Source: an uncultured Actinomycetes bacterium (GTDB taxonomy: Bacteria; Actinomycetota; Actinomycetes; Streptosporangiales; Streptosporangiaceae). From it: a stretch of 64,000 bases of DNA. The stretch covers positions 132,925 to 196,924 of the forward strand of contig CAWIGE010000019.1 of NCBI GenBank assembly GCA_963835425.1, written 5' to 3'. Below, piece after piece: positions 11,024 through 46,008 of this stretch (position 1 is the first letter of the stretch; each line of letters starts with the position of its first letter). A program made the position numbers and the translations under genes. The notes under the pieces were generated by a model, which made no database searches, was not told where the DNA came from, and saw nothing but the letters and a program-made list of their open reading frames with translations.

Positions 11024-11260
11024 CTACTGCCGGAGGAGGCTGGCGGCGGCCAGTAACCGGGCGAGCGGGCCGGGAGCCGCGCCGGTGGCGGAGGCAAGCT
11101 CCTCCGCCGTCCGTGCCGTCTCGCCCAGCTGATCGGGCACGCCCAGCAGGGCCATGACCCGGGCCACCTGCGGGGCGATGTACCCGTCGAGCAACCGCGC
11201 CAGCTGGCGGCCCTCATCGTCCACGGCCACCACGGCGTAATGAGACGTTTCCTCTGCCAT
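11024..11260 (-). pseudogene. Fragment resembling the N-terminal dimerisation/winged-helix domain of an O-methyltransferase
   Basis: 78-aa ORF: ..LLDGYIAPQVARVMALLGVPDQLGETARTAEELASATGAAPGPLARLL... No methyltransferase domain follows it. Confidence 0.45.
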
Positions 11261-11715
11261 GAGGCGCCCCTTTCCGGCCGGGTTGGCGAATCGGTCCATC
11301 CTGGCACGGCGGGCCCGGCAACGTCGATCGGGCGTTGACATGCACCGGCCACAGATGAACGCGGGCTGTATAGCGGGCATCTGGCGGGGATTTCGACCTC
11401 CAAATCCACCGCCGCTGACGCATTGGCTTCTCCGGGCTGGCATTATGGGATGTGATGAGTAACGCAAGTTCCCGCCGCTTTCCCGTGACCGTTACGCATC
11501 TCCCGGTCATGCGCTGCCAGATCTGTCACCGCACCGTCGCGTACCGGCCCGGCAAAGCGAGCGAAGTCCTAACCGAGCACTACCGGCGGGCCCACCCCAA
11601 GGCACTCGAACGGCCTTCCCGGTAGGGAAGCCGGCCCCGGGGTTCCCCGGTTCCCGGCCGTCTGCGGCGGCACGGGCGATAGCGCCATGCCTTGCGCTGG
11701 GCCGATATCTGCGAA

Positions 11716-12117
11716 TCAGTTTTCGCGCTTCAGCTTTCGCCAGCCGCCGGCCCGGTTGTTGGCAATGATTTGCCTGAACATGGCGGAGAGGGCGGGCGCA
11801 TTGATGGTTTCGCCCTGGCGGATGGCCACGGTGCGGGCGGTCTTGTTGTCATGGCCGCCGGTGATGATCCCTTCGGGATCGGGAACGATGCCGCCGTCAT
11901 AGAGAAAAACGTTGACGTGGTCCTTGGCAGCCAGCAGCGCGCAGATGTTGCCCTGCAGCACGAAGTACGGCTGGCGGGTGCGCTTGATGGTTTCGGCGAC
12001 CCCGGCACCGGCGCCGTGGACCAGGTCGCGTACCTCGCGGCAGATGGCCTGCTGCCAGGCGGGCAGGGCATCGATATAGGCGTCCACTTGCGGGTCAGCG
12101 GTGTATGTCATGGTCAT
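11716..12117 (-). CDS. DUF1801 (YdhG-like) domain protein
   Basis: 133 aa. ..VDAYIDALPAWQQAICREVRDLV.. and ..HVNVFLYDG.. match the pattern of this family. Confidence 0.8.
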   Translation of the reverse strand: MTMTYTADPQVDAYIDALPAWQQAICREVRDLVHGAGAGVAETIKRTRQPYFVLQGNICALLAAKDHVNVFLYDGGIVPDPEGIITGGHDNKTARTVAIRQGETINAPALSAMFRQIIANNRAGGWRKLKREN

Positions 12118-12161
12118 CCCCCACCCTAGCTGAGGCGGGGCGGACGACGTAGCGTGGCGCC

Positions 12162-12801
12162 GTGACCGCCGATGATCTTCCCCTGCCCACGTTGCTGTCG
12201 CGGCTGCTGATCGCGTTCACCATCGAGTTCGACAACGAGGCCGAGCGCCGGCTGGAGCACCGCACGACGCGGGGCGCGGCGGGCGACGGCGGCCGCGGCC
12301 CCTGGCTGGTGTCGCAGGCGATGTGGGCCAATTTCATGCAGTTCGTCGGCGGGGATGGGGTACCGCTGCACGAGGTTGACGACCTCGCCGGCATCACCAA
12401 CCTGGCCGGCCTGCAGCGGTGGGGCTACATCAGGGTCGGGCCGGACCCCGCGGACGGGCGAGCAGGCGCCGCCGCGCCGCGACTGGATCGTCAGGCCCAC
12501 CCGCGCCGGCCGCCGGGCGCAGGAGATGTGGGAACCGCTGGCGGGCATCATCGAGGACCGCTGGCGCGCCCGGTTCGGCGGCCCGGCGATCACCGCCATG
12601 CGGGACGCGCTGCAGGCACCAGCCAGCCATCTCGGCGCGGGGCTGCCGCGCTACCTGCCGGTCGTGAAGCACGAGATGTTCGCCGACGTCGCGCGCCTCC
12701 GGTCGCGGCCGCCCGCCGGCGGAGGCTCACCGGCCGACCTGTCGGTGCTCCTGTCCCAGGTGCTGCTCGCGTTCACCCGCGGGTGGCCCGACGGCAGCTG
12801 A
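12162..12801 (+). pseudogene. Winged-helix (MarR-like) regulator, frameshifted and probably 3'-truncated
   Basis: The N-terminal frame (..LLSRLLIAFTIEFDNEAE..GLQRWGYIRVGPDPADG) continues sensibly only in another frame (..EQAPPRRDWIVRPTRAGRRAQEMW..LLSQVLLAFT). The junction is at about 12446-12460 in C/G runs. Confidence 0.6.
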
Positions 12802-30430: not shown

Positions 30431-33400
30431 TCAGACCCAGAGGTCGGGTCGGTAACGTTCGGCCGTCTCCATCTCCTGCAGGTAGGCCTCCGCATGCTCG
30501 CGCGGCAGCGACCCATCTTCGGTGACGACGTCGATGAGCGCGGCACGAACGGCGTCGCGCATCGGCTGCGAGCCGCAGACGTAGACGTAGCCGCCGGCGT
30601 CGAGCAGGCGCCAGACTAGCGCACCCTGCGCCCGGATCCGATCTTGGACGTATTCGCGGGAGCCGGTCGGCTCGCGCGACGTCGCCACGTAAACGTGATT
30701 GAGCACCCCCTCGGCAGCGAACTGCTCGATCTCGTCGCGGTAGATGTAGTCGATGGTGCTTGAGCGGATGCCGTTGAAGAGCGCCGCCTCCGCCAGCGAG
30801 ACACCGGCGCGCTTCAGCGCCACCCGTTCCCACAGGAACGCCCGCATCGGGGCGAAGCCGGTGCCGGCGGAGACGAAGATCATCGGCTTCGTCACGTCCG
30901 CCTGCAGGTGGAACCCATCGGCGCTGTCGTGGAAGACGTTCAGGCGGTCGCCCTCCCGGAGCGTGTGCACGTAGTACGAGCTCATCCCGCGGAAACCGGT
31001 GCCGGTCATGCCCGGCACCGGCGTGGCCTCGAGGCCGACGGTCACGTGGGCGACGCCGTCGCCGTGGATCCGCGGGCTGGAGCTCGTCGAGTAGTAGCGC
31101 GGCCGGAGTGGCTGCGCCACCTGCAGGAACTCGAAGATGTTCAGCGAGCAGGACGGGAACTCGTCCAGTAGCCGGAGCACGTGGTAGCCGCCCGCGTCGA
31201 TCGCCGCGCGCAGCGGCGTATCGGGACCGTCCGGTGCCTGCAGGACATCTCTGATCTCCACCAGCCTCGACCGCTCGGCGGGGTCGGCCGCCTTCTCGAG
31301 CAGGAGGTCGAGCAGCGGCACCGTCGGCCTGCCGGTGATGTCAACGAGGTTGGTGAGCACGTTGCGGATCTGGAGCACGACCCCCTTCGGCGCGGCCCGG
31401 GCGTTCATCGTCTTCGGCACCATGAACAGGCCGTCGGGCGCCGCGCCGAGGTGCTGTGCGAGCCGCTCCACCTGCTCCTCGTCGTTCTTCGGGCAGACCC
31501 CGAGGTGGTCGCCGACCCGGTAGGCGACGCCGGGCGGCAGGCTGACCTCCAGATGCCGCGTCCGCTTCGGCGAATCGGCCGGCAGGAGCTCCCGGCACAC
31601 CAGCACGCGCGCCTCGACCGTGTCCATTCCGACGGCATTGCTGAGGATCGCCGGGGCCAGCAGCACCCGTGACTGCGTGCGGCTCCGGCCGCCCGGTTCT
31701 GGCGGGCCGCCGCGCAGCGACGCGGCCCACCTCCGCGACCCCGACGACATGCGGCGCATGATCGAAGAGGCGCTCCTCTCCGGGGGCGCGGGGGCGGCCG
31801 GGTCCGGCGCGCGGTCGTCAGCAAGGAGTGATCTGTGCATCGCGGTGCTGGAGTCGGCGCCCGTCAGCACGCCCGCGGCCGCCTTCTCGGCGGCGTCGCG
31901 CGCGGCCGCGGCCTCGGTCGGCCGCGCCCCGGACAGCTCGAGGAGCGCGGGCCAGACGCGGGCGTTCCAGTCCGCGTGCAAGCGCTCCCACACGGGCGAG
32001 CCCACGTCACCGTAGGCGAGCTCCGCGACCGGCGTGGCGCCGAGCCCAGACAGTTTCTTGTGCACGTAGCGGGGGAACGCCATGAACGCGTTCCACTGGG
32101 TGTTGCCGAGCCCCCAGACGAGATACCGGCAGTTCCGCCACATCTCGCCGCCGGGTTCCGTGCGCTCCAGCCACGCGCTGAACGCCGCCGCGTTCGTGGG
32201 CGGGTTCGACGTGTAGGTGGAGGTCATGACGACGAGCAGCCAGGGGTGCGTGCGGGCCGGGGACTCCGCGAGCTCGTTCAGCGTGATCGCGTCGCTCACG
32301 TAGCCGTGGAAGTGGCTGCGCTCGGCGAACCGCTCAGCCAGCTCCTTGTTCGCGCCGAAGTTGCTGCCATAGGCGATCACGAGATCCCGGTAGGCGCTCG
32401 TCTCGGGAATCTCCGTCGGCTGTCCCCACTCGGGCGCGGCGGCGGCCACGGCGACCGGGGGAGCGGCGGCAGGAGCGGGAGCGGCCGGGCGGTCACGTAC
32501 CACGGCCGCCCGCGGGCGCCCGTCCTGCTCGCGCGGCAGGCGGATGATCGGAACCGCGGCCGGTTTCGTCGTCACGACCGTGTTCTTCGCCACCGTCGCG
32601 CCCGGCGCGAGACGCAGCCGGTAGTGGCGGAAGACCTCGAACAGGACGACGCGGAGCATCATGAACGTGACCTCTTGCGCCATGCACTGCCGCTTCCCGA
32701 TCGAGAACGGGATGTATGCGTGGCGCGGCCGGTCGACGACCTTGTCCATCGCGAACTGGTCCGGATCGAACCTGTCGGCGTCGGGCCCCCAGTAGCGCGG
32801 GTCGCGCTGCGCGGCGAGCGTCCCGACGAGGATCATGTCGTCCTTCCGGATCCGGTAACCGCCGATCATCCCGTCCTTGAGGCTGCGGCGGATCGTGACC
32901 GGCATCGGCGGATAGATCCGCATCGTCTCCTTGATCACCTGCGTCGTGTAGGTCAGCGCCATCAGGTCGTCGTACTGAAGGTCGTAGTCCGGGTCGCGGC
33001 CGGTGATCCCGTCGATCTCGGCGATCAGCTTCTCCTCGACGTCCGGGTGGGTGCCGATGACATAGGCGAGCCACCCACCCGTGATCGACGGCCCGTTGAA
33101 GCCGTTCGAGAGGTGCATGAGGATCTGGTCGCGCATGGTCTCGTGGTCGAGGAACTCGCCCGTCCCGGGATCCGGCGTGGTCACGAGGCGAGTGAGCAGA
33201 TCCGTCGGCTGCCCGAGCGGGCAGGCGTGCGTGCGCGCGCGCACGAGCGCGTCGGCCGTTCTGAATAGCTCCTTGTTGTGACGGCGGTAGCGCCTCCTCC
33301 GCGCGCGCTTCGCACGCCCGGCGAAGAGCGTGGAGTCTGGGTAGGGATCGGCGACGCGCCGGATGCTCTCCTTCGTGCTCTCCGGAACGGCGACCGCGAA

Positions 33401-34711
33401 CGGGTGCGGCTCGCCGCTGCCGTCGAGCAGGCCGAAGTCGTAGTTGCACGCGCCGCGTCCCGAGACCTCCAGCGTGTAGCGCTCCATCCAGGCGCGCGCG
33501 TCGATCGGCTCGTCGTCGGGGATCGCGGACCACGCGGCGACGAGCTTCCGCGCCTGATCCTTCATCTGCCCGAGCTGCGTCCGCTGGTTCATCGGTGAGT
33601 ACCACGGCAGCATCACGCGGCGGATCTGCTCAGTGTGCTCGCCGTCGCCGATCACCGAGATGCCGCCGCCACGGGAGTTGCTCAGCTGGGCGAAGAAGTT
33701 GACCTCCTCGGCGCGCTTGCCGAACTGCTCCTCGTCCGCCGCCACCTCGTCGAGCAACTCGGGGTCCGAGACCACCACGAGCCGCCACTTCTTCGTCGGC
33801 ACTCCGACCGCGTAGATGTGCCCGAACCGGCGGTAGTAGTCGAGCTGAGTGTCGTTGTCGTTCAGGATGTGGAAGTTCGCGAACCGCTCGCCATTCGGCA
33901 CGAGCCAGCGGATCGCGTAGGGGATCTCGAGCGCGCCGTCGCCGTCGCCCGGCGGGGCCGAGGCCAGTTCCAGCCGTTCCCCGGCGAGGGCGCCGGGTGC
34001 CGCGGTGACCGGCGGTGCCTCCGCGGCGGCGGCCGGCGGCGGTGCCTCCCCGGCCTCGGCGTCGGCGTCGGTGACCTGCTGCAGTTCCTGGCCGATCAGC
34101 CGGAACGTGGCGGAGCCGACCTGGACGGTGTCCCCCTCGGACAGCGCCGCGTCCGTAACGCGCTGCCCATTGACGAAGGTGCCGTGACTGCTGTCCAGGT
34201 CCACGATGCGGTATCCGCCCGCCGTGTTGCGCAGTTCCGCGTGCTGGCGGGAGGCGGTGGGATCGGAGACCACGATGTCGTTCTCCGGCGCCCGGCCGAT
34301 GTGCACCGTCGTGGCGGACCGTGGCCGAGCCGCATCCGGCTCACCGTCCGGCTCCGGCTGCGAGCCGTCTTCGCTGACAGTGCAGGTCAGCACCGGCCCA
34401 TCAGCGGGATTGCCGAGCCGGACCTGGCATTCCGCGTCGATCTCGATCCGGTCTACCTGCTGGCCCCGGGCATAGGTGCCATTGGTGCTGCCGTTGTCCG
34501 CCAGCACCCAGCGGCCGTTCTCCAGCTGGAGCATTGCATGGTGCCAGGACACGCGGATATCGGCGATCGCGATGTCGCACTCTGGATCGCGGCCGATCAC
34601 ATACGAAGGGCGCCGGCAGGCTCCGGTCAGATCCCTGGGTCCGTACCAGAAGCGGCGCGGCCCCCCCCGAAAGGGACTTTCCGTCCACGCGCCAACTCTA
34701 GAGCGATTCAT
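30431..34711 (-). CDS. FHA-FHA-cytochrome P450-FMN/FAD/NADPH reductase fusion (CYP102/P450-BM3-like self-sufficient monooxygenase with two N-terminal FHA domains)
   Basis: Intact 1426 aa. Two FHA cores are present (..IGRDPECDIAI..VSWHHAML..NGSTNGTY.. and ..IGRAPENDIVV..ASRQHAEL..DSSHGTFVNG..). The heme loop is PFSIGKRQCMAQ (Cys codon about 32684-32686). Flavodoxin-like LVIAYGSNFGANKELAE..VVMTSTY. FAD/NADPH motifs RHLEVSLP..GDHLGVCP, RYYSTSSSP and IFVSAGTGFAPMRAF. Confidence 0.9.
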   Translation of the reverse strand: MNRSRVGAWTESPFRGGPRRFWYGPRDLTGACRRPSYVIGRDPECDIAIADIRVSWHHAMLQLENGRWVLADNGSTNGTYARGQQVDRIEIDAECQVRLGNPADGPVLTCTVSEDGSQPEPDGEPDAARPRSATTVHIGRAPENDIVVSDPTASRQHAELRNTAGGYRIVDLDSSHGTFVNGQRVTDAALSEGDTVQVGSATFRLIGQELQQVTDADAEAGEAPPPAAAAEAPPVTAAPGALAGERLELASAPPGDGDGALEIPYAIRWLVPNGERFANFHILNDNDTQLDYYRRFGHIYAVGVPTKKWRLVVVSDPELLDEVAADEEQFGKRAEEVNFFAQLSNSRGGGISVIGDGEHTEQIRRVMLPWYSPMNQRTQLGQMKDQARKLVAAWSAIPDDEPIDARAWMERYTLEVSGRGACNYDFGLLDGSGEPHPFAVAVPESTKESIRRVADPYPDSTLFAGRAKRARRRRYRRHNKELFRTADALVRARTHACPLGQPTDLLTRLVTTPDPGTGEFLDHETMRDQILMHLSNGFNGPSITGGWLAYVIGTHPDVEEKLIAEIDGITGRDPDYDLQYDDLMALTYTTQVIKETMRIYPPMPVTIRRSLKDGMIGGYRIRKDDMILVGTLAAQRDPRYWGPDADRFDPDQFAMDKVVDRPRHAYIPFSIGKRQCMAQEVTFMMLRVVLFEVFRHYRLRLAPGATVAKNTVVTTKPAAVPIIRLPREQDGRPRAAVVRDRPAAPAPAAAPPVAVAAAAPEWGQPTEIPETSAYRDLVIAYGSNFGANKELAERFAERSHFHGYVSDAITLNELAESPARTHPWLLVVMTSTYTSNPPTNAAAFSAWLERTEPGGEMWRNCRYLVWGLGNTQWNAFMAFPRYVHKKLSGLGATPVAELAYGDVGSPVWERLHADWNARVWPALLELSGARPTEAAAARDAAEKAAAGVLTGADSSTAMHRSLLADDRAPDPAAPAPPERSASSIMRRMSSGSRRWAASLRGGPPEPGGRSRTQSRVLLAPAILSNAVGMDTVEARVLVCRELLPADSPKRTRHLEVSLPPGVAYRVGDHLGVCPKNDEEQVERLAQHLGAAPDGLFMVPKTMNARAAPKGVVLQIRNVLTNLVDITGRPTVPLLDLLLEKAADPAERSRLVEIRDVLQAPDGPDTPLRAAIDAGGYHVLRLLDEFPSCSLNIFEFLQVAQPLRPRYYSTSSSPRIHGDGVAHVTVGLEATPVPGMTGTGFRGMSSYYVHTLREGDRLNVFHDSADGFHLQADVTKPMIFVSAGTGFAPMRAFLWERVALKRAGVSLAEAALFNGIRSSTIDYIYRDEIEQFAAEGVLNHVYVATSREPTGSREYVQDRIRAQGALVWRLLDAGGYVYVCGSQPMRDAVRAALIDVVTEDGSLPREHAEAYLQEMETAERYRPDLWV

Positions 34712-34917
34712 GTGAAAGTAAAACAGTTTTTGCTGAACCGTTCAGGGGCTTTCGCCGTCGCGGCGGTGCGCGCCACTGCAGTGCGAGCCAGCGCCGTTCG
34801 CCAGCTCGGCCAGATGGTCACGTTCGGGTCGAATCAGCCGAGGGGAACGGGGCCGCTGTAGGCCGTCACGCTCCGTTTCGCAACGTCCTCGTTGTGTGAA
34901 CCCAGCCCGCAGCGGCC

Positions 34918-35330
34918 ATGCCCGGTCATGTGCCCCGGACTGTCCCCTATATCGGCTCCAAAACCCAGAATGGTTTCGGCACCTTTGGCCAGCCGGACAT
35001 TGCTGCGACGCTGGTGGCGGCGGGCAAAGCGATCAGGGAAGTCTGCTACCAGAAATGGTGGGTGCACCTGCGCCACCGGCCGGAATCCGGCGGCGCGATC
35101 GTCTACCTGCAGAAAACCGGGCAGGGCGGGACCGTCGAGGGCCATGTGAGCGATACGGTTCTCAATTCGCAGGCGGTGCAGGCCAGCTTCAAGGCGAACA
35201 ACAGCTATTTCTGCCCCAAGCCTTCCCCGGAGGCTCGCCCACCCATCCGGTGTATCCGGCCGGGCCTGGCATCCATGCCGGGATCCAGCGCCACCGCGAC
35301 GATCCTCAACCTACATCCCGCTGTGTGAAC
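34918..35330 (+). pseudogene. Partial, diverged second copy of the vanadium-haloperoxidase-like gene (internally deleted)
   Basis: ..PYIGSKTQNGFGTFGQPDIAATLVAAGKAIREVCYQKWWVHLRHRPESGGAIVYLQKTGQGGTVEGHVSDTVLNSQA.. parallels 36549-36790 with scattered substitutions. It then jumps to a GIHAGI-like segment. Confidence 0.6.
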
Positions 35331-35564
35331 TCGGCCCGCAGTGGCCGGCGTACCGTTGCCGGTCCTGCCCGGGTGCCCGCCAGTGGACCCTGGGGCGGCG
35401 ACGGGGTATCACGCTGGCAGGTCATCCTGGTCATACCCGGCCATGTGTCCCGGACTGCTCCGTCATCCGGGCCGATGGACCTCACCGGGCAAGGTCCTTC
35501 ACGGCCAAGGCGTCAGCTTGACCGTGACTCAAGCGAGACTTAATTTGCCCATGCCACTATCCGG

Positions 35565-37215
35565 GTGGGCAAAGACTGGAGCACGACACAGGATCCGGAT
35601 GTAGAAACGATGGCCCGGGCCGGGCCAAGCGACGCTGCCGCCCTCAGGCCCGGACCACCGGATGGAGCCAGGAAGACACTTAACGCGGAGCTGAACCGGC
35701 GACCGGCGGCCGGGTCTGGCGATCCTGGGCATTGCGTACCCGAACGGCAGGGGAGCGACGCCTTCGCCGCCCCTCCGGCCCAAGTCGATAATGGCGACGA
35801 GGCGCGCTACGGCGATAAATCGGGAACCCATACGAAAGATGTGCTGCAATCAAACGTCGGCGTGGTCGATCCCGCTGCCTACCAATCGTTCAAGGCCGCG
35901 CTGAGCAGTGGCGACCCGGCTGACTTCGAGAAGATCGTCGTGGGTGGGTCGCGTACCCTCAATGGGCCGCAGGCGGCCTGGCGTTCTACCTGGACAGCCT
36001 GGATGGCAGCCAGTACGCCGTCCCGCCCGCTCCCGAGCTGGCGAGCGAGGCCTACACGACGGAACTCGTGGAGCTCGACTGGGCCTCACTACTGAGGGAT
36101 GTCGCGTTCACCACCTATCCGGCGAGCAGCTGAGGCCATGCGGGCGGCGGCCGAGTTATCGTCCACGCCGACATACGCGGGCCCACGTGACGCCGCCAAT
36201 CAGGTCACGCCGGGGCTGTTGTTCCGTGGCGGCCTCGCCGGCGAGACGGTTGGGCCTTATGTATCACAGTTCCTGCTCCAGCCGACCGCGCTGGGATCGC
36301 TGCCGATCACCCGGAAGTACATCGGCAACAAGGCCGGTGAAGACTTCATGACGGGGCCCGCCGAGTTCCTGAATGTGCAGAACGGCATCCCCACCGGGAA
36401 GAGCCTTACCCCGGGCACGGCACTTTATCTGCACAACGGGCGCGACCTGGCCGCCTACACGCATGATGACGTCCTGTATCAGGCATATCTCATCGCGTAC
36501 CTCGTGCTGACCCACAATCAACAACGGCACCCCGGCGACCCTGAACCGGGCAACCCCTATATCGGTTCCAGTACCCAGAATGGGTTCGGCACTTTGGGCC
36601 AGCCTGACATTGCTGCGACACTGGTAGCGGTGGCGGGCAAAGCCATCAGAGAAGTGTGGTACCAGAAATGGTGGATGCACCTGCGCCACCGGCCGGAATC
36701 CGGCGGCGCGATCGTCTACCTGCAGAAAACGGGGCAGGGCGGAACCGTCGAGGGCCACGTCAGCGATACAGTTCTCAATTCGCAGGCGGGCAGACCAGCT
36801 TCAAGGCAAACAATAGCTACTTTCTGCCACAAGCCTTCCCCGAAGGTTCGCCAACCCGTCCGGCATATCCGACCGGTCATGGCGCAGTGGCTGGAGCCTG
36901 CATCACGGCACTGAAGTTCTTCTTCGATGGCACCTTCGCAATCGAGAACCCGCTCGTGCCGTCCAGCGACGGAACGGCCACCGCCGCCTGCACTGCCCCG
37001 GCGGGCGAGGCGCCACTGACCGTGAACGGCACAACATCAGCTTCGGTCATGGCATCCATGCCGGGATCCACGGGCGCAGCGATACCGATACGTCGATCCA
37101 GCTGAGCGAGGCGGTGGCGCTGAGCCACCTGCAGGACCACGCTCACACCTACAACGAGCGACTCCGTATCTCGCTCACCAGGGTGGACGGCACCACCGCG
37201 ACCATCACCAACTCC
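35565..37215 (+). pseudogene. Vanadium-dependent haloperoxidase-like (PAP2 superfamily) gene, multiply frameshifted or deleted
   Basis: Family landmarks are spread over three frames: NGDEARY..KDVLQSNVGVVDPAAYQSFKAALSSGDPADFEKIVVGGSRTLNGPQ, GLAFYLDSLDGSQYAVPPAPELASEAYTTELVELDWASLLRDVAFTTY, WYQKWWMHLRHRPE, LPQAFPEGSPTRPAYPTGHGAVAGACITALKFFFDG and GIHAGIHGRSDTDTS..TYNE. Confidence 0.65.
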
Positions 37216-37239: not shown

Positions 37240-37585
37240 TCAGCTTGGCCCATGGCCGCGGGTCGCTGAGTTGGTGCCGCCAGGCTGCGGCTGCGTACTC
37301 GCTGGGTCGCGTCGCCAGGTCAGCGCCACGGTGAAGTTCGCCGTAGTGCTGACAGCAGCGATGAACGCCCCGGCCTCGGCGTGGAGGTCGAGGCCGAACT
37401 CGACGTGCACCTCGTCTGGTACCTCGGCGAGAGAGCGCAACTGCGTGATGACGCCTTCCACCGCAGGCTGGACGCGGCCAACCGCCTCTTCGAAGGTCTG
37501 CCGCGCCCGTTCAACTACTTCGGGCCCCTTCAGGCTGGCGCGTCACCGGGCCCGTGTGATGCCCGGTGACGTTGACCAGCACTGA
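37240..37585 (-). pseudogene. 3' part of a Trypco1-like (CU044_2847-family-like) gene interrupted by the IS; also carries a frameshift
   Basis: ..VLVNVTGHHTGPVTR / ASLKGPEVVERARQTFEEAVGRVQPAVEGVITQLRSLAEVPDEVHVEFGLDLHAEAGAFIAAVSTTANFTVALTW... The family call is from a recalled motif (PDEVxVEFGxKxxAEAGxxIAKxxxEANFxVxLTW). The frame changes at about 37525-37535. Confidence 0.6.
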
Positions 37586-37604
37586 TACGGCAGCTGTAGT
37601 TCGT
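37586..37604. repeat. Terminal inverted repeat of the IS (left end in window coordinates)
   Basis: tacggcagctgtagttcgt. Confidence 0.9.
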
Positions 37605-37609
37605 TGTGA

Positions 37610-38968
37610 TCATGGTGTTGTCTCGGCATAGGCGTTCCAGCGTTGGTGGGCTTGGCGGGCGCGGTGCTGGTGGCGGCGCCGCCAGGTGGACCAGTGCAGC
37701 CGGTGGGGCCGGTCTCGGTGGGGTGGTGGGATGACGGTGTCGCGCAAGAGCCGCAGCAGTTCCGGGATGGTGATCGGGATCAGCCCGGCGTCCGGGTCTG
37801 AGCCGGCGTCGTGCTGGCGCTGCACGGCGACGGCGACGGCGAGGTAGAGGTAGGCGAGCAGGCAGATCGCGGTCCAGCGGTGCCAGGACTTCCAGCGGAT
37901 GACCTGCCCGGCGTCCAGGCCGGTGGCTCTGCTTGGCTGAGCTGGTGATCTTCCTCGATACGCCACCTGGCCGACTGCGATGGCGATCAGCCGGGACAGC
38001 GGGACCGGCCCGGGTGTCCAGCACCGGTAGAAGGACAGCTTGCCGGTATAGCGGTGCCGCCGGACCAGCAGCACGCTGTGCCCGTCCTGGTGCCCGTCGG
38101 GGGTGTCGTCGCTGGTCACCTGGAGCATGGCCCAGTCGTAGTGCCGGGTGCCCTTGGTCCCGGACCCGGTGCGCATCCGGTGCCAGGCGCGGGCGGGAAT
38201 CAGCGGCACAGCTTGGGCCGCGGTCAGGGCGCGGCCCGAGCCGGCGGTGATGGCGTGGTTGGCGCGGACCGCCAGCACATAGCCCATGCCGCGCTGGCGG
38301 ATGCCGCGGCGCAGCTGGCGGCCGCCGTAGACCTCATCACCGGCCACGAAGGCGGCGCGGATCCCCGCGCGCATGCGCGCGGTCCAGCAGGCCGCCGGCC
38401 AGCTGCGGCTTGGTGGCGAACATCACCTCCTCCGGGACCCCGGCCAGCTCGCGGTGCTCCTCATCGCAGCGCAGCGCTTCGGGCAGGTACAGAGCCCGGC
38501 CGATCAGCGCGTGCCCGCGGCGGGTGGCATAGGTCAAGGTGACCGCCACCTGGCACAGCGCGATCCCGCCCACGGTGCCGCTGTACTGGCGGGCCGCGCC
38601 GGCCGCAGTCGGCTGAGGACTTCTCATCGGCGGTCTCATCCACGATCAGCACCGCATCCCCGTCATCGAGATGGCTGACCGCCCAGGCCGCCGCGGCGTC
38701 CAGGATCTGCTGGTCGTCCCAGACCGCCCGCGACAGCAGGTGCTGCAGCCGGTGCGGCCCGCGGTGCCCGGCCGCCTCGGCGATGGTCCAGCAGTTGTGA
38801 TCTTCCAGCTCCATCAGCAGCCCGCTGCACCATCTGGCTGCAGGACTGGCGGGTCTCCCGCCGGGGAAAGCACCCGGCCACCCGCCCGAGCAGATCCGCC
38901 AGCAGCGCCGACCGGGCATCATCAGATAGGGTGGCAGCAGCGGCTGCCGCGTCTTGATTGTGTCTCAC
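37610..38968 (-). pseudogene. IS701-family transposase gene, broken into at least 4 frames
   Basis: The pieces are MRHNQDAAAAAATLSDDARSALLADLLGRVAGCFPRRETRQS, ..LLMELEDHNCWTIAEAAGHRGPHRLQHLLSRAVWDD..AVLIVDETADEK, ..ARQYSGTVGGIALCQVAVTLTYATRRGHALIGRALYLPE..FATKPQLA and ..AFVAGDEVYGG..WHRWTAICLLAYLYLAV. An RWRIEEDHQ segment is readable only in a shifted frame. Confidence 0.8.
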
Positions 38969-39040
38969 AACTCGTCATGATCGCGGCAGCCGCACCTTTA
39001 TGCGGTCATCCTGCTGACCTGCACAAACAACCCGAAGATC

Positions 39041-39059
39041 ACGAACTACAGCTGCCGTA
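39041..39059. repeat. Terminal inverted repeat of the IS (right end in window coordinates)
   Basis: acgaactacagctgccgta is the exact reverse complement of 37586-37604. Confidence 0.9.
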
Positions 39060-39105
39060 ACTGAGCCTCCTGATTCCAGCGGGAATTCGACCAACTGTCC
39101 CATCG
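39060..39105 (-). pseudogene. 5' part of the IS-interrupted Trypco1-like gene
   Basis: The reverse strand reads ATG GGA CAG TTG GTC GAA TTC CCG CTG GAA TCA GGA GGC TCA GT = MGQLVEFPLESGGS. An RBS ggaagggag lies upstream. It joins in frame to 37585 once the IS and one TSD copy are removed. Confidence 0.65.
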
Positions 39106-39276
39106 CCACCACTCCCTTCCAGGCGATTCCCGGGCTCGCTGAGCGAGATCGGTGACCGCCACTTCAGGCCTAGAGAGAAAGAAACTAGCAGCGAGAATGG
39201 TTATAGGTCTGCGCATACCCGCAGGTCACAAGGGGGGAGTGGCGGAGTTGTCAGATGAAGGGCCTGCCCAACCAGA

Positions 39277-40852
39277 GTGGGCGGACGGGATCCGCGGCAG
39301 GAACAGCCAGTGACGGACACACCGCAGGAGAAGCCACCGCCAGAACGCGGCAAGGTCCAGTGGGGCGACATCCTGTCTGAGCTAATGTATTTGCTCCGTT
39401 ACATGCTTGGTATGGGGGTGATGCGGGCATCTGGACGGCCCCGGCACCCGGTCAGCGGCGGCGAGCCTCTTTATGCGCGTGCGGTGCTGGAAAGCGCGAA
39501 GATCGAAGAACGCTACTTCTACGAGCAGGAGATCTCCCGGAACCCGCACAGCAAGATGTTGCGCCGTCCAAAGGGGAAAATAGAACTCACGCTCCCCTAT
39601 GACGGAGATCGGTATTTCACCAGGCAAGCGTACACAGATATCACCCGTCTCTATAACCCCACCTATGGTGATGCCCGCGCGCTTGTCGGACACTTGGCGC
39701 TTACCGGCTACGGGCAGACGAACCTCGGCGGTCTGCTGGACCTAGGCGAGACCTACGGATCCATCCCGCTTAAGGTAGCTGTCCCGGCCGCTTCCGGCCA
39801 GCCTGCTGACTTGATAGCTGATCGCAGCAGCAGCGTCTTCAGCTGCGAGTACGAGCCGAGCACCGATCGGATCAAGGTCAGGCCGGTCACCGTCGAGATC
39901 GACCTGCTCGACCCCGATAGTTCCGGATTTTCTGCCCGTGAGGGTGAGGAGGGGACGGCCGAAGAGATCATGCAGCAGGTCAGCTTCCGGTCCGAACTGC
40001 TGCTCCGCATGAAGGTCTGGCTCCACGCTCCCGGTGCGCCGGATGGGGTCGTACCCGCGGAGGTGAAGAAGGTGACTGTTAGCTGGCCGACCATCACGTC
40101 CCTCAGGTCACTCAGCCTGACGGTGAACGGGGAGGATCACCCGGTCAGGTACAACCCCAAGGATCGCTGCCTCGAGTGGTTCAAGGTCTCGATGACCCTG
40201 AGCCCTGACGCACCTGCCGGAGACATGCAGACCTATACCAGCGGCGTAATGGAGTTGCGGATTCCGGAGCCGGGAGAGCTCTACCAGGAGCGTAACCTGA
40301 CGGGCACGGTAGAGGTGAGGATGGGCAAGCTCCTGTCCGGCATGGAGGCAAGGCTCTACAGCAGCGACCGGGTCTATTCGGCACCGGCCAAGGCTTAAGC
40401 TCCATACTTACATATCCACTGACTTTGACCTGATCCTAGGTGACGCCTTCGCTCGGCGGGAGCTCACGCCATACCAGCACCTCCACTTCGATGAAGTGAT
40501 ACCGAGCGAGATGCGGATAAGCGACATCAAGATCGCGTTGACCAACCGTGGCTTCAGGCTCACGCATGAATGGCTAGATAGTGGCACGGAGGGCCGGTGG
40601 CTGCGGGCGGAGCGGTTCGAGGGCCCAGACCGGATGGTACTCGTTCTCTACATCCAGGGGATATTGCATCAGGCGAGGCGAGATTCACGGATCCCCGGCG
40701 GCATCACCTACCGGAGCAACCTGGATAGCGGCGAGATACGAATCTACGTCCGTGGTCAGCTGAAAAGGAAGAGCCAGCCAGTTATCCATGAGATGAACGC
40801 GCTGCGCAGGGCTCTCCGCGAGCGTTTCGACCACCTCCCGGCTAGACGCTGA
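39277..40852 (+). CDS. Island gene 1: large uncharacterised protein, paralogue of island gene 2 (one apparent frameshift at about 40385-40400 joins track ORFs 39277..40398 and 40496..40852)
   Basis: The second ORF has no RBS, and its frame stays open back to 40382 (..LKLHTYISTDFDLILGDAFARRELTPYQHLHFDEVIPSEM..). The joined protein aligns collinearly with gene 2 (see findings). Lower-GC codon usage. Confidence 0.55.
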
Positions 40853-40876
40853 TGAAGGAAGCTGGAGGGCAGCCTG

Positions 40877-42585
40877 ATGGATGGCACGCCCAAAGAGCGC
40901 GCTCCGCGGGCGCGCTGCTATAAGTGTGGATCATCTCAGATCACCCGCATGTGCCACCATTGCGGGAGAATTGGCTGCAGCGCGCATGTCACGCCAACCC
41001 GCAAGCTCTGGGGCCGGCCGCTTAGCCGGGAACTGCGGGGCCTGGACATGGACAAGAAGGCTGCTTATCACTGCCCCGATTGCGCTCATCTCGGCAGTCC
41101 CGTGCTGACGGTTGGCGTCATAGGGGTGATAGTGGCACTGGCGGGTGCCGTTGTCCTCTGGCTGAGTTTCTGGGCCGGCCTGGCCATGGTTCTGCTGGGC
41201 GCAGCAATAGCGATTGGAAGCTATATCGCAGGCCGCCGCAGAGAGGCAAAGCGAGAGAGATTGCCGCTTCCAGTCCTGCCGAGACTGGAAGAACTCAGCG
41301 TGAGAGAAGAACTCAGTGGCAGGGTCATACTCTGGCCGAGCGGTGATTACGACCAGCCCACACCTGATCCGGTACAGGGTGAACTAACAGCTAATCTGGT
41401 GCTCGGTAAGACCGACCGTCGCCGTCTCGAGGGGTACGTACACAGGCACCGGATGCCACAAGGTAGCGACGTTAAGTTCTGTGCGGGATTCCTGGTTCTC
41501 CAGGGCCAGGTCGGCAGCAGTTTGTCACGCATTTTTCCCGACCTATCTATCCCGCTCGATGGCACGACCTCCGACTATCTGGTGTTTGATGTGGAACGTC
41601 ATCGCGCATCGAGTTCATATCGTATCGACTACACTTATGATCTGATAGCAGGCCGGGAAGTTAAGAAGGTTCCGGTCTGGATCACACCTGCTATTGCCCC
41701 CAGATCCGACAAGCGTGGACTGGAGCTGCAGATTCAGTGGGTTGATATGGGTAACCAGGAGCACAGCTTTCGTTGGAGAACGTTGAGTCACTGGAATTGA
41801 GGGTTCCAGTGGAATGGGGGGATGTTGTAGACTTCAACAAGCCCGTCCTATCGAGCCTCCGGGCAAACGAAGAGGACGGTCAAGCGCGAGGCTCATTGAA
41901 TGGGTACAGTTGCGGCCCAGCGAGCAGGAGAACCAGCGCAAGCGGCTTGATTTTGTTGTACAGTTTGAAGACAAGATCAAAGAGGGAGATGCCATATCTG
42001 GCCGCCTCGATATGGTCTTCAAAGGAGCCATCTCGGGGATCGAGCGGATCCATCTCTACAGTCCCCTTGGGGATCGGCGGATACATTCATCTGCCGCGAA
42101 CGTTACAACCCATGTGATGCTGGACTTCGAGCTCAGCCTGACGAGCACCCGCTATCAAGACGTCAGGTTGGTTCCTGATCGCAGGATGTCGGAAGATCGG
42201 GATAGGGGCGAGGCCAGAGAATTCCCGGCAGTGATACCGAACGACAGATACCGTCATCAGACTCACGAATGCCCTGAGCGAGCAGGGATACTACATAAAG
42301 CGGATCATAGAGAACCCGCGGAGAAGTGGCCCCCGGGCGAATCTGGTCCGTCGTTACTGGGACATCGCGGGTCGGCATTATGCGGGTGTCTACCCAATAG
42401 ATTTCCATATCATCCTGACCGGTGACGAGATTCAACGCGGTGGAATACGCGCACATAGTGGTACGACGAAGGCGTGCGTAACTGTGCAAGGATCATACGC
42501 GAACCCGGATATGCAAAATCGCGTCGAGAGGGCATGGGACAGGCTATACGACCTGATAGTGAGCACGCTGGAGTCACTGTCGTGA
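40877..42585 (+). CDS. Island gene 2: double Zn-ribbon + 2 TM helices + beta-rich region + C-terminal domain shared with gene 1 (three apparent frameshifts at about 41770, 41888 and 42245)
   Basis: RBS ggaggg precedes ATG 40877. CYKCG..MCHHCGRIGC..YHCPDC, then VLTVGVIGVIVALAGAVVLWLSFWAGLAMVLLGAAIAIGSYIAG. A sensible reading continues through frames 41773.. and 41814.., then a third frame to the TGA at 42583-42585 (..IRLTNALSEQGYYIKR..RVERAWDRLYDLIVSTLESLS*). Confidence 0.6.
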
Positions 42586-42738
42586 CCCGCACAGTCCGGG
42601 GCGGCTCGACCGGATCCACCAGATGGCTGGGAAGAACCCGTTGGCGGCCTGGCCGTCGCTGGCAGGCAAAATGACTCCGGCCCGGATCACGTCCCGAGGA
42701 ACACCGCGGTGGCTAGGGCGGCGATGATAGGAGGCTTC

Positions 42739-42963
42739 ATGTCCTGGGAGTGCGCTGAATGCAATGTCAAGGAATCGGCCGGCAGGATGATCGACGCCAT
42801 CTGCCATCATTGTGGCAAGCCGCTGTGCCGTGATGACCGGATTGAGATCGCTGACAATGCCTTCAGCAGTGGTGGGTCAACTGGCCCAACGGCGATCCAC
42901 TGTCGTGCCTGCAGGCGGAAGCATCATGCCAGTGCCGTGGCGCTGGGCGTGGCAGAGCGATGA
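42739..42963 (+). CDS. Island gene 3: small stand-alone Zn-ribbon protein homologous to the N-terminus of gene 2
   Basis: RBS aggagg (42729-42734) sits 4 nt before ATG 42739. The protein reads MSWECAECN..ICHHCGKPLC..IHCRACRRKHH. Its stop overlaps the gene 4 start (ATGA at 42960-42963). Confidence 0.6.
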   Translation: MSWECAECNVKESAGRMIDAICHHCGKPLCRDDRIEIADNAFSSGGSTGPTAIHCRACRRKHHASAVALGVAER

Positions 42964-44247
42964 TCGAAGTGACGCTCCGGCAGGCGGAGCTTCTCGTCGG
43001 CGAGGACGCGGACGTCGTCGTGCAACTCGCGAACACCGGGCCGGGGGCATGCACGCACATCTTTTTCACGCTGACGTTGCCGGGCGAGATCATGCTGCTG
43101 CACGGCCAGGACGAGATAGAGGTGGACCGCCTGGAACCGGGGGAAACTGCCACCCGCACCTTGCGTGTCCGGCCTCTTAGCGCCGCCCGGTGCCGGGTCA
43201 CGAGCACGAACTTCTCGTACCGGGATCGCTACGGGTTGACATGCCGCCGGGACCGTGACTTCCGAGCGGTGCTTGTTACGACGGTGCCCGAGCGGCGCGG
43301 GCCGGAGCCGGGAGCGCGGCCACCCGCCCTGAAGACGACTTTCACCGTCAACCTCGTCACGGCCGAGCTGCCTTACGGTGAGTGGACTTTACTGGAGGGT
43401 CGCATCACCAACTCGGGCGATACGGAGCTGGGGAACGTTGAGCTCAGCATCTCAGGGCCGGTAGCCCCCGGCAAACGGGGGCGCAAGGCCAGGCTCGGTT
43501 CGGTGCGCGCCGGCAGCCGAGGCTTCGTTTGGATTCTTCGTATGCGCAGATGGGGCCGCGGGCACGGTGCCAGTTTACCTCGACCTCTCTTTCGTTGATA
43601 AGGCCAGGCGCTACGCTCGGGCGCTTGTGCGGACGGTGCAGGTCGCCAAGAAGAATCAGCCATCACCTTCGGCGCTGACAGAATCTGTTGTCCTGTTTTT
43701 TGCTGCCAATCCTGTCGATACCGAGGTGTTGCGTACAGGCAAGGAATTCATGGTGATCGAGAGGGCCCTGGAGAGCGGCCGCGGGAAGGCCAGGATAAAG
43801 ATACGCCCTTCGCTTGCCACGCGAGCCAGAGATATTAGCCGAGAGCTACTGCAGGTAAAGCCGTGGATTGTTCATTTCGCGGGCCACGGCGGAGGACTGG
43901 AGGAGAGTTTCGCAGTTGAAGACGAGGATGGTTACGCGCGCGTTGTTCCGACGGGTGGCTTGTCAAGTCTTTTCGAAATAGCCGGGAAAGGTGTTGAGTG
44001 CGTCATTATAAATGCTTGCTCTACCGTGGGACTGGCGCAGGCTCTGTCTCAGCACGTTGATTACGTGATCGCGATGAGCCAGCCTATCTATGATTGGGAT
44101 GCAATCGAATTCAGCAGGGCCTTTTACCAGGCGCTGGCGGCCGACTACTCGATCAGGTCCGCCTTCGACCTAGGCCTTGCGGAGCTGGAGATGTTGTCGG
44201 ACGGTGCGGCCTATGACATTCCAAAAATCCTAGGCCGCCAGGGCTGA
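42960..44247 (+). CDS. Island gene 4: two CARDB-like beta-sandwich repeats + C-terminal minimal CHAT/caspase-like peptidase domain (one apparent frameshift at about 43515-43526)
   Basis: Two repeats follow the pattern V..G....V.V.L.N.G.......L..P.....L.PGE. After ..RLGSVRAGS the sensible frame becomes EASFGFFVCADGAAGTVPVYLDLSFVD.. (track ORF 43567..). The CHAT-like core is VVLFFAANPVDT..WIVHFAGHG (His codon 43885-43887)..VECVIINACS (Cys codon 44017-44019)..YVIAMSQPI.D..AIEFSRAFYQAL. Confidence 0.65.
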
Positions 44248-44308: not shown

Positions 44309-45826
44309 TCAGGCCGTGATGACGTGGTACTCCGATACGTCCAGGTGACGGGTGGCACGCCGGAACCCGAGCGTGGAGCCGGGCCACAGCGTCGTGTTGC
44401 GCCCGGCGGCGTTGAGGTACCAGCTCACGCAGCCGCCGGTGGCCCACACCGAGGACGCCATCCGCCGCTCGACGCCGGCGCACCAGCGCTCCTGCGCGCC
44501 CCGTCGCGCGTCGAGGGCGGCAGCCCCGGTCCGGTCCAGCGTCGCGAGATAATCCAGGATGTAGTGGAGCTGGGACTCGATGATGTGGACCATCGAGCTG
44601 TGGCCGAGCCCGGTGTTGGGCCCGATGACCAGGCACAGGTTGGGGAAGCGCGGCACGGTGGTGCCCCGCAGCGCCCGCATGTCGCCGTCCCAGGCCTGGG
44701 CCAGGGTCACGCCATCGGCTCCGGTGATGCGCCCGGCAATGGGCATGTCCACCGCGCGGAACCCGGTGGCCAGAATGATCACGTCCACATCGTGGGCGGT
44801 GCCGTCCCCGGCGATCACGGTGTGGCCGTCCACCCTGGCGAGTCCGCCGCCGACCACCTCCACGTTCGGCCGCGTCAGCGCCGGATAGAAGTCGCTGGAC
44901 AGCAGGATCCGCTTGCAGCCCATCACGTAGCGCGGTGTCAGCTTGGCGCGCAGGACGGGGTCGGGCACGGACTTGGCCAGGTGGCGCTCCGCGATGCGCT
45001 GTGCGGCCTTCAGCATCCCCGGCCGTGCGACGAAGGCGGCGAACGCGGGCTCGCGGACCAGATAATTCCCCAGGCGGGCCAGGCGCTGGGCCGGAGGAAG
45101 GTGGCGGTAGACCCACTTTTCCGGCCCGGTGATGACCCGGTCACGGCGCGGCAGCACCCAGGCCGGGGTGCGCTGGAACAGCACCAGGCGGGCCGCCGTG
45201 GGCTGGATCTCGGGCACGATCTGGATCGCGCTTGCCCCGGTGCCGACCACCGCGACCCGCTTGCCGTCGAGACGGGCGCCGTGGTCCCAGCGTGCTGAGT
45301 GGAACACCTCCCCGGGGAAATCCGCGAGCCCGGGAACGTCGGGAAGGCGCGGTTCGGAGAGCGGGCCCGCCGCCGAGATGAGGACGTCGGCGGTCAGGCC
45401 AGTCTGGGCAGCCGGGTTGGCGTGGAGGTCTGGCCCGGCAGGGGAGTCCGTCGGCCCGGTGCGGGCGATTCGCAGCCGCCAGCGCGCCAGGCCGGCGTCC
45501 CAGCGGGCCTCGGTGACTTCCGCCCCGAGCCGCAGATGGCCGCGCAGGCGGTAGCGGTCGGTGATCTCTTCCAGGTAGTCCCAGATCTCTGGCTGCCGGG
45601 AGAAGCTGTGGGTCCAGCCGGGGTTCGGCGCGAACGAGAACGAGTACAGGTGCGACGGGATGTCGCAGGCGCACCCGGGATAGGTGTTGTCCCGCCAGGT
45701 GCCGCCCACCGAGACCGCCCGCTCCAGGATGACGAAGTCGGTCACGCCCGCCTGCCGCAGCCGGACGCCCGCACCGAGCCCGCCGAAGCCAGCGCCGATG
45801 ATGGCGACGCGCACATGTTCAGGCAC
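44309..45826 (-). CDS. Flavin-dependent (Baeyer-Villiger/FMO-type) monooxygenase
   Basis: ..VAIIGAGFGGLGAG.. (FAD-binding), ..GGTWRDNTYPGCACD.., FxGxxxHxxxW-like FPGEVFHSARWDH, and a second Rossmann motif VAVVGTGASAIQ. The start could instead be ATG 45901. Confidence 0.85.
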   Translation of the reverse strand: MPEHVRVAIIGAGFGGLGAGVRLRQAGVTDFVILERAVSVGGTWRDNTYPGCACDIPSHLYSFSFAPNPGWTHSFSRQPEIWDYLEEITDRYRLRGHLRLGAEVTEARWDAGLARWRLRIARTGPTDSPAGPDLHANPAAQTGLTADVLISAAGPLSEPRLPDVPGLADFPGEVFHSARWDHGARLDGKRVAVVGTGASAIQIVPEIQPTAARLVLFQRTPAWVLPRRDRVITGPEKWVYRHLPPAQRLARLGNYLVREPAFAAFVARPGMLKAAQRIAERHLAKSVPDPVLRAKLTPRYVMGCKRILLSSDFYPALTRPNVEVVGGGLARVDGHTVIAGDGTAHDVDVIILATGFRAVDMPIAGRITGADGVTLAQAWDGDMRALRGTTVPRFPNLCLVIGPNTGLGHSSMVHIIESQLHYILDYLATLDRTGAAALDARRGAQERWCAGVERRMASSVWATGGCVSWYLNAAGRNTTLWPGSTLGFRRATRHLDVSEYHVITA

Positions 45827-46008
45827 GGTGTCAGTGTCCTGGATCCAGGGCCCCGGCGGCGAGCCCACGCGGCACCCATGGATGTATCGGGCGGAACCCA
45901 TGGATGTGTAAAGCAAAACCCATCGATGTATCAAGCCATCAAGGTGGCGCTCCTATCCATGTTGGGACGGCCGTGACACGGCATCGGGGAGGCAGGGGGA
46001 GTTCGGCG

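Follow-up and report, generated by a model that had tools for sequence, protein, structure and literature searches.

Control of death effectors by proteases is emerging as a major principle of bacterial immunity; where such systems have been characterised, the protease is joined to a sensor of recognisable type, for instance a STAND, SAVED or TPR domain. Defence systems with CHAT or other caspase-fold proteases include the type III-E Craspase (TPR-CHAT/Csx29 with Csx30), the SAVED-CHAT to PCaspase pathway, bacterial gasdermins with their caspase-like protease, and the CATRA ternary systems, and we know of no description of CARDB-like sandwiches and a coupled zinc finger in any of them. A second group of described systems is built around Trypco1, a family defined as partnering the peptidases of conflict systems (Kaur et al. 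2020, eLife e52696; PMC7159879). Trypco1 and Trypco2 have since been renamed Pepco, a 9-10-mer beta-barrel that pre-assembles and becomes a lethal membrane pore once an adjacent serine protease removes a ~2-kDa Pro/charged tail from its C-terminus; in Actinobacteria, the same work states, Pepco is accompanied by proteases of the serine or the cysteine type (Evans et al. 2025, bioRxiv 10.1101/2025.11.14.688446). The subject of this study is a gene cassette in a 64,000-nucleotide stretch of DNA (hereafter the window) from an uncultured actinomycete of the Streptosporangiaceae (assembly GCA_963835425.1, contig CAWIGE010000019.1, positions 132,925 to 196,924). On balance, the region is probably the pseudogenised version of a five-gene module that arrived by horizontal transfer; relatives carry it intact, and it would act there as a protease-gated suicide or defence system. 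In the clade of the window copy, the five-gene unit consists of a Pepco gene divergent from an operon of four genes, g1-g2-g3-g4 (Table 1).

The four operon genes are an obligate unit of conserved order. Every fetched locus with all four genes (more than 35 loci, referred to below by L numbers) has the order g1-g2-g3-g4, and so, judged by tblastn with the four Kibdelosporangium phytohabitans proteins, do essentially all of the 27 loci recovered from a scan of species-representative genomes. The neighbourhood search suggested by an initial annotation of this DNA thus recovers the quartet as a unit, and even the most divergent full-length relative of g4 (34% identity) lies within the same quartet. 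The hosts comprise Amycolatopsis, Kibdelosporangium, Actinosynnema, Saccharothrix, Lentzea, Streptomyces, Streptosporangiaceae, Frankiaceae, soil metagenome-assembled genomes and one Acidobacteriota metagenome-assembled genome. A search with the repaired g1 product returned more than 120 full-length homologues of 480-590 aa that carry no Pfam annotation, and an exhaustive profile search gave a g1 family of 532 representatives at 50% clustering (298 with E <= 1e-30; uniform length). The initial annotation could place the cassette in no named system, and the same holds after database searches: neither the window fragments nor the intact orthologues of g1 and g2 matched anything in Pfam, NCBIfam or PADLOC, and the CHAT domain of g4 is the part of the cassette that PADLOC recognises.

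The protease of the cassette is the product of g4. The combination of CARDB-like repeats and a CHAT domain that had been read from the letters is upheld by Pfam, in which CARDB (E 3e-5) and CHAT (E 2.5e-7; 30.9 bits against a cut-off of 24) both score above their cut-offs, and the presence of two such repeats is supported by hhalign (E 3e-9). The His/Cys dyad is likewise intact in the window (VHFAGHG and NAC), and its columns, H292 and C339, are invariant in 26 orthologues. Beside CHAT, g4 has only the two CARDB-like sandwiches and no NTPase or other sensor domain, and the SAVED_CHAT and chat models are the only ones in PADLOC that match it. Like the CHAT and caspase-fold defence systems, the cassette has a caspase-fold His/Cys protease that would be the switch of a multi-gene conflict module, the outputs of such modules often being membrane-damaging; it differs from them in having no CRISPR, SAVED, TPR, gasdermin or alpha/beta-hydrolase partner. 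With respect to CATRA/CATASP, no Pfam-A model matches intact g1, g2 or g3, which is an indirect test by Pfam models alone. A literature search for a system that combines CHAT, CARDB and a zinc ribbon found no paper.

The small gene g3 ties the protease to the rest of the operon. Its product has the invariant residues C5, C8, C24, H25, H26, C27, C32, H60, C61, C64 and H69 in the alignment, and it is homologous to the N-terminal zinc finger of g2 (hhalign E 1.3e-10), so that the earlier view of g3 as a free copy of that domain holds. In Pfam, g3 shows only sub-threshold resemblance to C1, DZR and Prok-RING, and PADLOC gives one weak match to HEC-08 (E 0.006). The g3 and g4 genes overlap by 4 nt in 21 of the 22 intact loci, the median gap between g2 and g3 is 1 nt, and, judged from this arrangement, g3 is translationally coupled to g4. 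A distant relative of g4 (P0389; JGI 3300075153) is a single 531-aa protein in which zinc-ribbon domains are fused directly to CHAT, a fusion that hints that the zinc finger and the CHAT protease act together.

The two large proteins, g1 and g2, are predicted to share a two-subdomain all-beta fold that resembles the eukaryotic mu-homology domain (MHD). In g1, a clade-specific N-terminal helix is followed by the MHD-like all-beta region (~60-395) and a conserved C-terminal alpha/beta domain (~396-524), while g2 consists of a two-zinc finger, a transmembrane hairpin, the MHD-like region, the C-terminal alpha/beta domain, a disordered linker and a two-helix tail. AlphaFold2 models of g1 (predicted local distance difference test score, pLDDT, 78.7) and of the intact g2 orthologue from locus L001 (pLDDT 82.5) were searched against the PDB with Foldseek, and the top 49 matches for g1 and the top 46 for g2 were all MHDs (E 1e-9 to 1e-5, probability 1.0), among them AP-1 to AP-4 mu, delta-COP, SGIP1, FCHo1 and Syp1. 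The alignments cover ~320-340 columns, which is essentially the whole MHD, with target-normalised template-modelling (TM) scores of up to 0.53. No Pfam model, including Adap_comp_sub/muHD, matched g1 or g2 at E <= 0.1-1, a sequence-profile search with g1 against PDB chains found no relative, and a literature search for prokaryotic MHDs found no paper.

The initial annotation had called g2 a paralogue of g1, and this is borne out in part. Profile-profile comparison with hhalign supports two collinear paralogues (E 7.8e-9 and 1.5e-9), the signal being carried by the last ~190 columns; for the N-terminal halves, paralogy by sequence alone is not significant (E 0.05), and we accept it there only from the predicted fold. 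The shared C-terminal domain has a beta-alpha-beta4-alpha topology and is the best-conserved part of both proteins; its only matches, to START/helix-grip folds, were sub-threshold (E ~5e-3). The N-terminal additions ascribed to g2, a double zinc finger and two transmembrane helices, are supported by the hhalign match to g3 and by the AlphaFold2 model of the L001 orthologue, in which two adjacent helices (75-94 and 98-124) form a hairpin that would put the rest of g2 on the cytoplasmic face of the membrane. The two-helix tail of g2 (residues ~604-640 of the g2 product encoded at L001 7374-9302; consensus RLLxxLGxLDEAxxxGRISxExYxEMR) bears what we take to be a resemblance to a SHOCT-type C-terminal oligomerisation motif, and it is the part that the 106-bp deletion has removed in the window.

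What the MHD-like fold means for the cassette can be read in more than one way. We hold only tentatively that g1 and g2 may be genuine prokaryotic homologues of the eukaryotic MHD (AP-1 to AP-4 mu, delta-COP and the FCHo/Syp1/SGIP1 muniscins), forming a soluble and a membrane-tethered member of a peptide-recognition pair that gates a caspase-fold protease and a pore toxin. The likeness lies in the predicted fold of a ~300-residue all-beta region in both proteins and in the membrane-proximal position of g2, which active MHDs share. The differences are that g1 and g2 have no sequence similarity to MHDs, no longin domain and no coat partner, that a bacterial-specific alpha/beta domain follows the all-beta region, and that the context is one of protease and toxin and not of trafficking. 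Very improbable, in our view, is the further proposal that g1 and g2 are true adaptor-like sorters of membrane cargo, a prokaryotic analogue of AP complexes or muniscins that the protease matures or regulates: both models match only MHDs and g2 is predicted to be membrane-tethered, but coat, GTPase or longin partners are found at no locus, the distribution is sporadic with frequent loss of the cassette, and the cassette is linked to a pore toxin.

The hairpin of g2 raises the possibility that the cassette kills through its own membrane protein, in that CHAT would cleave g2 (or g1) and the transmembrane hairpin of g2, set free or rearranged by the cut, would form a pore in the manner of a 2TM effector or a gasdermin, with Pepco a late addition in one clade. 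Most clades keep the four genes without Pepco, the hairpin is predicted to be a tight two-helix one, the shared C-terminal domain and the linker are the most conserved parts of g1 and g2, and effector-less caspase-like proteases that still protect against phage have been noted (10.1101/2025.11.14.688446). We nevertheless regard this mechanism as quite unlikely, as few segments of g2 are less conserved than the hairpin (entropy 1.96 bits), neither a cleavage site nor a segment with an autoinhibitory role was identified, and Foldseek searches against the PDB and the viral structures of BFVD revealed no similarity of g2 to known pore formers (in BFVD, nothing at E <= 0.001).

The effector that we favour is instead encoded next to the operon. 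A divergent gene of ~125 aa, annotated as Pfam Trypco1 (PF19493), lies directly upstream of g1 in L031/L032, L033, L034, L001 and L003, and the remnant of this gene in the window is 82% identical to the annotated protein of L031. Pepco is present in all six loci of one clade of g1, that of the window, in four different genomic contexts. Since the six Pepco-linked loci form one clade in a neighbour-joining tree of g1 yet lie in four chromosomal contexts, Pepco moves with the cassette. The neighbouring Trypco1 gene, which the initial annotation had taken for context, is thus itself a component of the cassette and likely its effector, and the functional unit reaches to the left of 39106, as far as the split Pepco gene. 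At the position of Pepco, L005 (566-1039, minus strand) and L006 (9224-9724, minus strand) have instead a divergent gene for a 157-166-aa protein with one hydrophobic segment and a C-terminal coiled coil; it matches no family, and it may be an alternative small membrane effector.

The comparison with published Pepco-protease modules (Kaur et al. 2020; Evans et al. 2025) shows likenesses as well as differences. In both cases a small Pepco gene adjoins a protease gene in Actinobacteria, and Pepco ends in a Pro/charged tail (~20 aa and presumably disordered here), whose removal by the protease would be expected to give an active pore. The only protease near Pepco in the present module is g4, a stand-alone CARDBx2-CHAT protein, whereas in the published modules a trypsin- or caspase-like domain is joined to a sensor of the STAND, FGE or peptidoglycan-binding kind; the task of sensing would here fall to the separate proteins g1, g2 and g3. 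All six Pepco orthologues have a conserved ...FTVALTWRR before the Pro/charge-rich tail, so that the tail is preceded by Arg-Arg in place of the conserved Ile reported for serine-protease-linked Pepco. In addition, Pepco accompanies the cassette in only one clade.

The Pseudonocardiaceae carry a different set of accessory genes, and accessory modules in general are clade-specific and swapped between clades. The 17 loci of the Pseudonocardiaceae clade, from Kibdelosporangium, Amycolatopsis, Actinosynnema and Saccharothrix, all have the same extra genes within 10 kb: one or two Crp-type transcription factors that bind cyclic nucleotide monophosphates (cNMPs), immediately upstream of the cassette; a downstream convergent pair encoding a ~375-aa protein, here protein X, and a Sa_NUDIX protein; and a ~1,350-1,600-aa STAND NTPase of the TCAD9 plus NACHT-like type. 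This conserved island surrounds the quartet in L002, L012-L021 and L024-L028. Between Kibdelosporangium and Amycolatopsis the STAND gene changes sides relative to the cassette, yet the linkage is kept. With the quartet linked to Pepco/Trypco1 in the window's clade and to this set in the Pseudonocardiaceae, the conflict-type context suspected in the initial annotation is found in both. The Pseudonocardiaceae form alone shares with the cNMP defence systems (Pycsar, and CBASS with 2TM or Sa_NUDIX) cNMP-binding domains like those of Pycsar sensors (PADLOC PycTIR E 8e-14) and a SMODS-associated NUDIX; the difference is that the cNMP-binding domain is fused to a Crp-type helix-turn-helix, as in a transcription factor, and not to a killing domain. 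None of this set is present in the window. To the eye, protein X has motifs like those of class III cyclases (AADTESYSRF, SGDGQF and RLRVALHRGHV...GW.G...VHRLLD); the idea that it is a class III nucleotide cyclase is kept only as a lead, as no Pfam, PADLOC, NCBIfam or PDB-profile match was obtained, and no recognisable cyclase or CD-NTase was found in these loci.

One mechanism that would accommodate these observations is as follows. Soluble g1 and membrane-tethered g2 would form a membrane-proximal pair for sensing or scaffolding at the inner face of the membrane, with their MHD-like domains as surfaces for binding peptides or proteins. The CHAT protease, made in stoichiometry with g3, would be held inactive or positioned by zinc-finger contacts with g3 and the N-terminus of g2, until a trigger such as infection or envelope stress activates it. 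The active protease would then cut the disordered C-terminal tail off the pre-assembled Pepco barrel, after ...TWRR, and trimmed Pepco would form a membrane pore and kill the cell, in the manner of abortive infection or programmed death. Where Pepco is missing, the output might be the transmembrane hairpin of g2 or broad proteolysis. In the Pseudonocardiaceae, the operon would also be wired to the cNMP-type set (the Crp regulators, Sa_NUDIX with its partner, and the TCAD9-STAND NTPase), and a nucleotide signal is probably linked to its expression or activation.

A protease-gated suicide module fits the obligate quartet, the coupling of g3 to g4, the homologous zinc fingers of g3 and g2, the catalytically competent protease, the two predicted folds of protein-binding type and the clade-specific pore-toxin partner. 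Several points weigh against it. Many bare quartets lie among ordinary metabolic genes and not in obvious defence islands, PADLOC recognises nothing in the cassette beyond the CHAT domain, and sequence entropy shows no hypervariable surface on the putative sensors. The similarity to MHDs comes with modest TM-scores (0.2-0.5), high root-mean-square deviation and no sequence support, and the roles proposed for g1, g2 and g3 are inferred from fold and architecture. Since Pepco is confined to one clade it is not a universal effector, and published Pepco activation is by a trypsin-like protease that cuts after a conserved Ile, compared with the CHAT protease proposed here.

Some of these points would also be expected if the cassette were a regulated-proteolysis or signalling module of normal physiology in filamentous actinomycetes, serving membrane-protein processing, developmental death or envelope stress, with the conflict links incidental. 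CHAT proteases do have non-immune roles, as in separase and cyanobacterial HetF, and the ordinary metabolic neighbours at many loci and the lack of visible hypervariable regions are in keeping with such a role. Moreover, in the Pseudonocardiaceae the cassette has conserved synteny and host-like guanine-plus-cytosine (GC) content (within 0-3 points of its flanks), like resident genes. The distribution is patchy, however, with a GC deficit of up to 13 points in several lineages; throughout the Pepco clade, whatever the context, the deficit relative to the flanks is 9-13 points. The tight linkage to Pepco, an experimentally shown suicide toxin, or to Sa_NUDIX, the STAND NTPase and cNMP-binding regulators is likewise hard to reconcile with a housekeeping role, as is the loss of the cassette from the window's lineage with no visible compensation. 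The repeated disruption of the cassette by insertion sequences (ISs) or frameshifts points the same way. An IS4-like transposase gene lies inside g2 of L004 (12717-14902), two Transposase_29 genes lie inside g1 of L026 (5383-10001), and in each of L007, L009 and L010 a gene is frameshifted, truncated or absent; with the window, about 1 in 6 loci are inactivated, and copies of the cassette have thus been inactivated independently and repeatedly. Taken together, a role in normal physiology appears unlikely to us.

L001 served as the reference for the window copy; the two are syntenic from the P450 gene through the cassette to the next two genes downstream, at 82-91% nucleotide identity. The initial annotation had suspected an inactive copy from five apparent frameshifts; the suspicion is confirmed and the count is too low, since the alignment reveals six single-base indels in g1, g2 and g4, a nonsense codon in g2 and a 106-bp deletion through which the g2 remnant runs in frame into g3 (Table 1). 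A 15-bp deletion is also among the lesions, and g3 (74 codons) is the only gene of the module that is intact. With every large component inactivated, the module does nothing in the window.

It might be argued that the frameshifts are errors of assembly or consensus, arising from a long-read metagenome assembly or from strain heterogeneity over a variable island, and that the cassette is functional. In the IS701-family element within the Pepco gene, the 18-bp terminal inverted repeats (TACGGCAGCTGTAGTTCG) are perfect and the target duplication of 5 bp (ACTGA, 37581-85 and 39060-64) is intact, yet the transposase is split over at least two frames (open reading frames [ORFs] 37610-38374 and 38461-38922). 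L001, too, has a split gene: the FMO-like gene that is whole in the window (541 aa) has an orthologue at 10897-12462 (minus strand) that is divided into ORFs of 278 and 159 aa. Each assembly thus has its own broken gene, which bears on the trust that frameshifts in these contigs deserve. On the other hand, seven frameshift-type lesions lie in the ~5.4 kb of module genes and none in the ~7.4 kb of the flanking P450, FMO and aminotransferase genes, a split that uniformly placed lesions would give with a probability of (5.4/12.8)^7, or ~0.002, and we therefore read the lesions as true decay. Neither the flanking genes (the 1426-aa FHA-P450-reductase fusion, the 541-aa FMO-like gene and a 515-aa aminotransferase) nor the other long genes of the 64-kb window are interrupted, and all seven frameshifts fall inside one functional module. 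In addition, the IS insertion, the 106-bp and 15-bp deletions and the nonsense codon are atypical of consensus errors, and the single-base indels all lie outside long homopolymers. We consider such errors an improbable explanation.

The IS701 element itself has a family transposase (with a broken frame), terminal inverted repeats and a target-site duplication, and it is absent from syntenic L001. Its perfect repeats and intact target duplication suggest a recent insertion, and the broken transposase means that the copy is dead or else points to local errors in the consensus. An IS701 element inside a Trypco1 gene is what the initial annotation had drawn as the left border, and tblastn, NCBIfam and the element's ends agree. 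The Pepco remnant has an internal frameshift near 37526-37536 and retains the ...FTVALTWRR end and the Pro-rich tail.

Table 1. Features of the module and adjoining elements, in window coordinates
Feature	Position	Strand	Evidence and remarks
Pepco/Trypco1 pseudogene, C-terminal part, codons ~16-126	37240..37585	-	tblastn with L031 and L001 Pepco; NCBIfam CU044_2847 E 3.9e-17
IS701-family insertion sequence, 1474 bp	37586..39059	-	Pfam DDE_5; NCBIfam transpos_IS701 E 8e-30 and 1.4e-20
Pepco/Trypco1 pseudogene, N-terminal 15 codons (MGQLVEFPLESGGSV), severed by the IS	39060..39103	-	tblastn
Pepco/g1 divergent intergenic region	39104..39238	.	six-locus alignment; conserved block ~39170-39200 across the Pepco clade
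g1 pseudogene	39239/39277-40852	+	single-base indels (frameshifts) at ~39289 and ~40363 relative to L001; product soluble, ~525-536 aa
g2 pseudogene	40877..42705	+	single-base indels (frameshifts) at ~41750, ~41888 and 42246 relative to L001; nonsense codon 42583-85; 106-bp deletion at 42706
g3, intact, 74 aa, eight-ligand Cys/His zinc finger	42739..42963	+	alignment, hhalign
g4 pseudogene, two CARDB-like beta-sandwiches then CHAT protease	42960..44247	+	single-base indel (frameshift) at ~43507 relative to L001; Pfam, PADLOC, hhalign

The gene models in Table 1 were obtained by three-frame translation of the plus strand and protein-guided alignment to an intact relative, and they recover the four co-directional genes with the architecture first described, including the 24-nt gap between g1 and g2 and the ATGA overlap of g3 and g4. 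The gap of ~150 nt with a strong ribosome-binding site that had been placed between g2 and g3 does not hold up: given the 1-nt median of intact loci, it is an artefact of the decayed 3' end of g2. On the right, g4 ends 61 nt from the convergent FMO-like gene (44309-45934, minus strand), in agreement with the border drawn earlier.

The low-GC island is real, with a contrast of ~10 points. In 500-nt sliding windows, GC is 0.53-0.64 across 39.0-44.25 kb and 0.70-0.74 in the neighbouring windows; the mean is 0.599 for the cassette and 0.695 and 0.715 for the flanks, and GC at third codon positions (GC3) is 0.75-0.78 in the cassette and ~0.9 in flanking genes. The dip claimed initially thus stands, but its figures of 45-57% against 75% overstate both ends, which would make a contrast of 20-30 points. 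Rfam and tRNA scans of the whole window gave no match, and there is accordingly no integration site of the tRNA type.

The divergent intergenic region between Pepco and g1 has conserved features that may bear on regulation. A conserved block, CTAGACAGAAAGAAACTAGCAGCGAGAATGG, is found in this region in the window (39165-39238), in L001 (5640-5740) and in L034, L031, L033 and L003. A palindrome (CTGCGCATACCCGCAG, 39209-39224) lies just 5' of the Shine-Dalgarno sequence AAGGGGGGA and the GTG start codon of g1 at 39239, and across the loci of the Pepco clade it takes the form CTGCGCATAC(C/T)CGCAG, directly 5' of the Shine-Dalgarno sequence of g1. A role in control of the operon, as an operator site or as an RNA hairpin, is possible. 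A scan for promoter and terminator consensus sequences gave nothing above shuffled sequences.

Farther to the left, the gene at 30431-34711 (minus strand) encodes the 1426-aa fusion of two FHA domains, a P450, a flavodoxin and an FAD/NAD-binding reductase, which resembles a self-sufficient P450-BM3-like enzyme with an N-terminal FHA pair and is conserved beside the cassette in L001 and L034. Between it and the Pepco remnant lie ~2.3 kb (34920-37198) that are absent from syntenic L001 and L034. The ORFs of this segment (34896-35543, 35565-36095, 36099-36914 and 36656-37105) have a low GC3 of 0.73-0.79, no match in Pfam or NCBIfam, and no tblastx match in any fetched locus. The segment is probably a second piece of foreign or decayed DNA.

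The copy in the window is a relic, and its value is as a pointer to intact orthologues in K. phytohabitans, Amycolatopsis species and the metagenomic loci of the Pepco type. The intact K. phytohabitans cassette occupies 3,738,324-3,743,266 of CP012752, and L031 and L033 are examples of the Pepco type, L031 being contig_42131 of ERZ25039538. If our reading of the module as a protease-gated suicide or defence system is true, these bacteria would have arrived at a different solution to the control of a death effector, in which the CHAT protease stands alone and is linked with a zinc finger and two large proteins of no known family. The g1 family comprises hundreds of 50%-identity clusters, mostly in filamentous Actinobacteria, that lie outside defence catalogues and domain databases. 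A bacterial-conflict origin has already been proposed for the Death, TIR, NACHT and gasdermin domains; to our knowledge, no prokaryotic relatives of the cargo-binding domain of eukaryotic vesicle coats have been reported. If the MHD similarity of g1 and g2 reflects common ancestry, the cargo-recognition domain of the vesicle adaptors (AP, COPI and muniscins) would trace to a bacterial conflict system.

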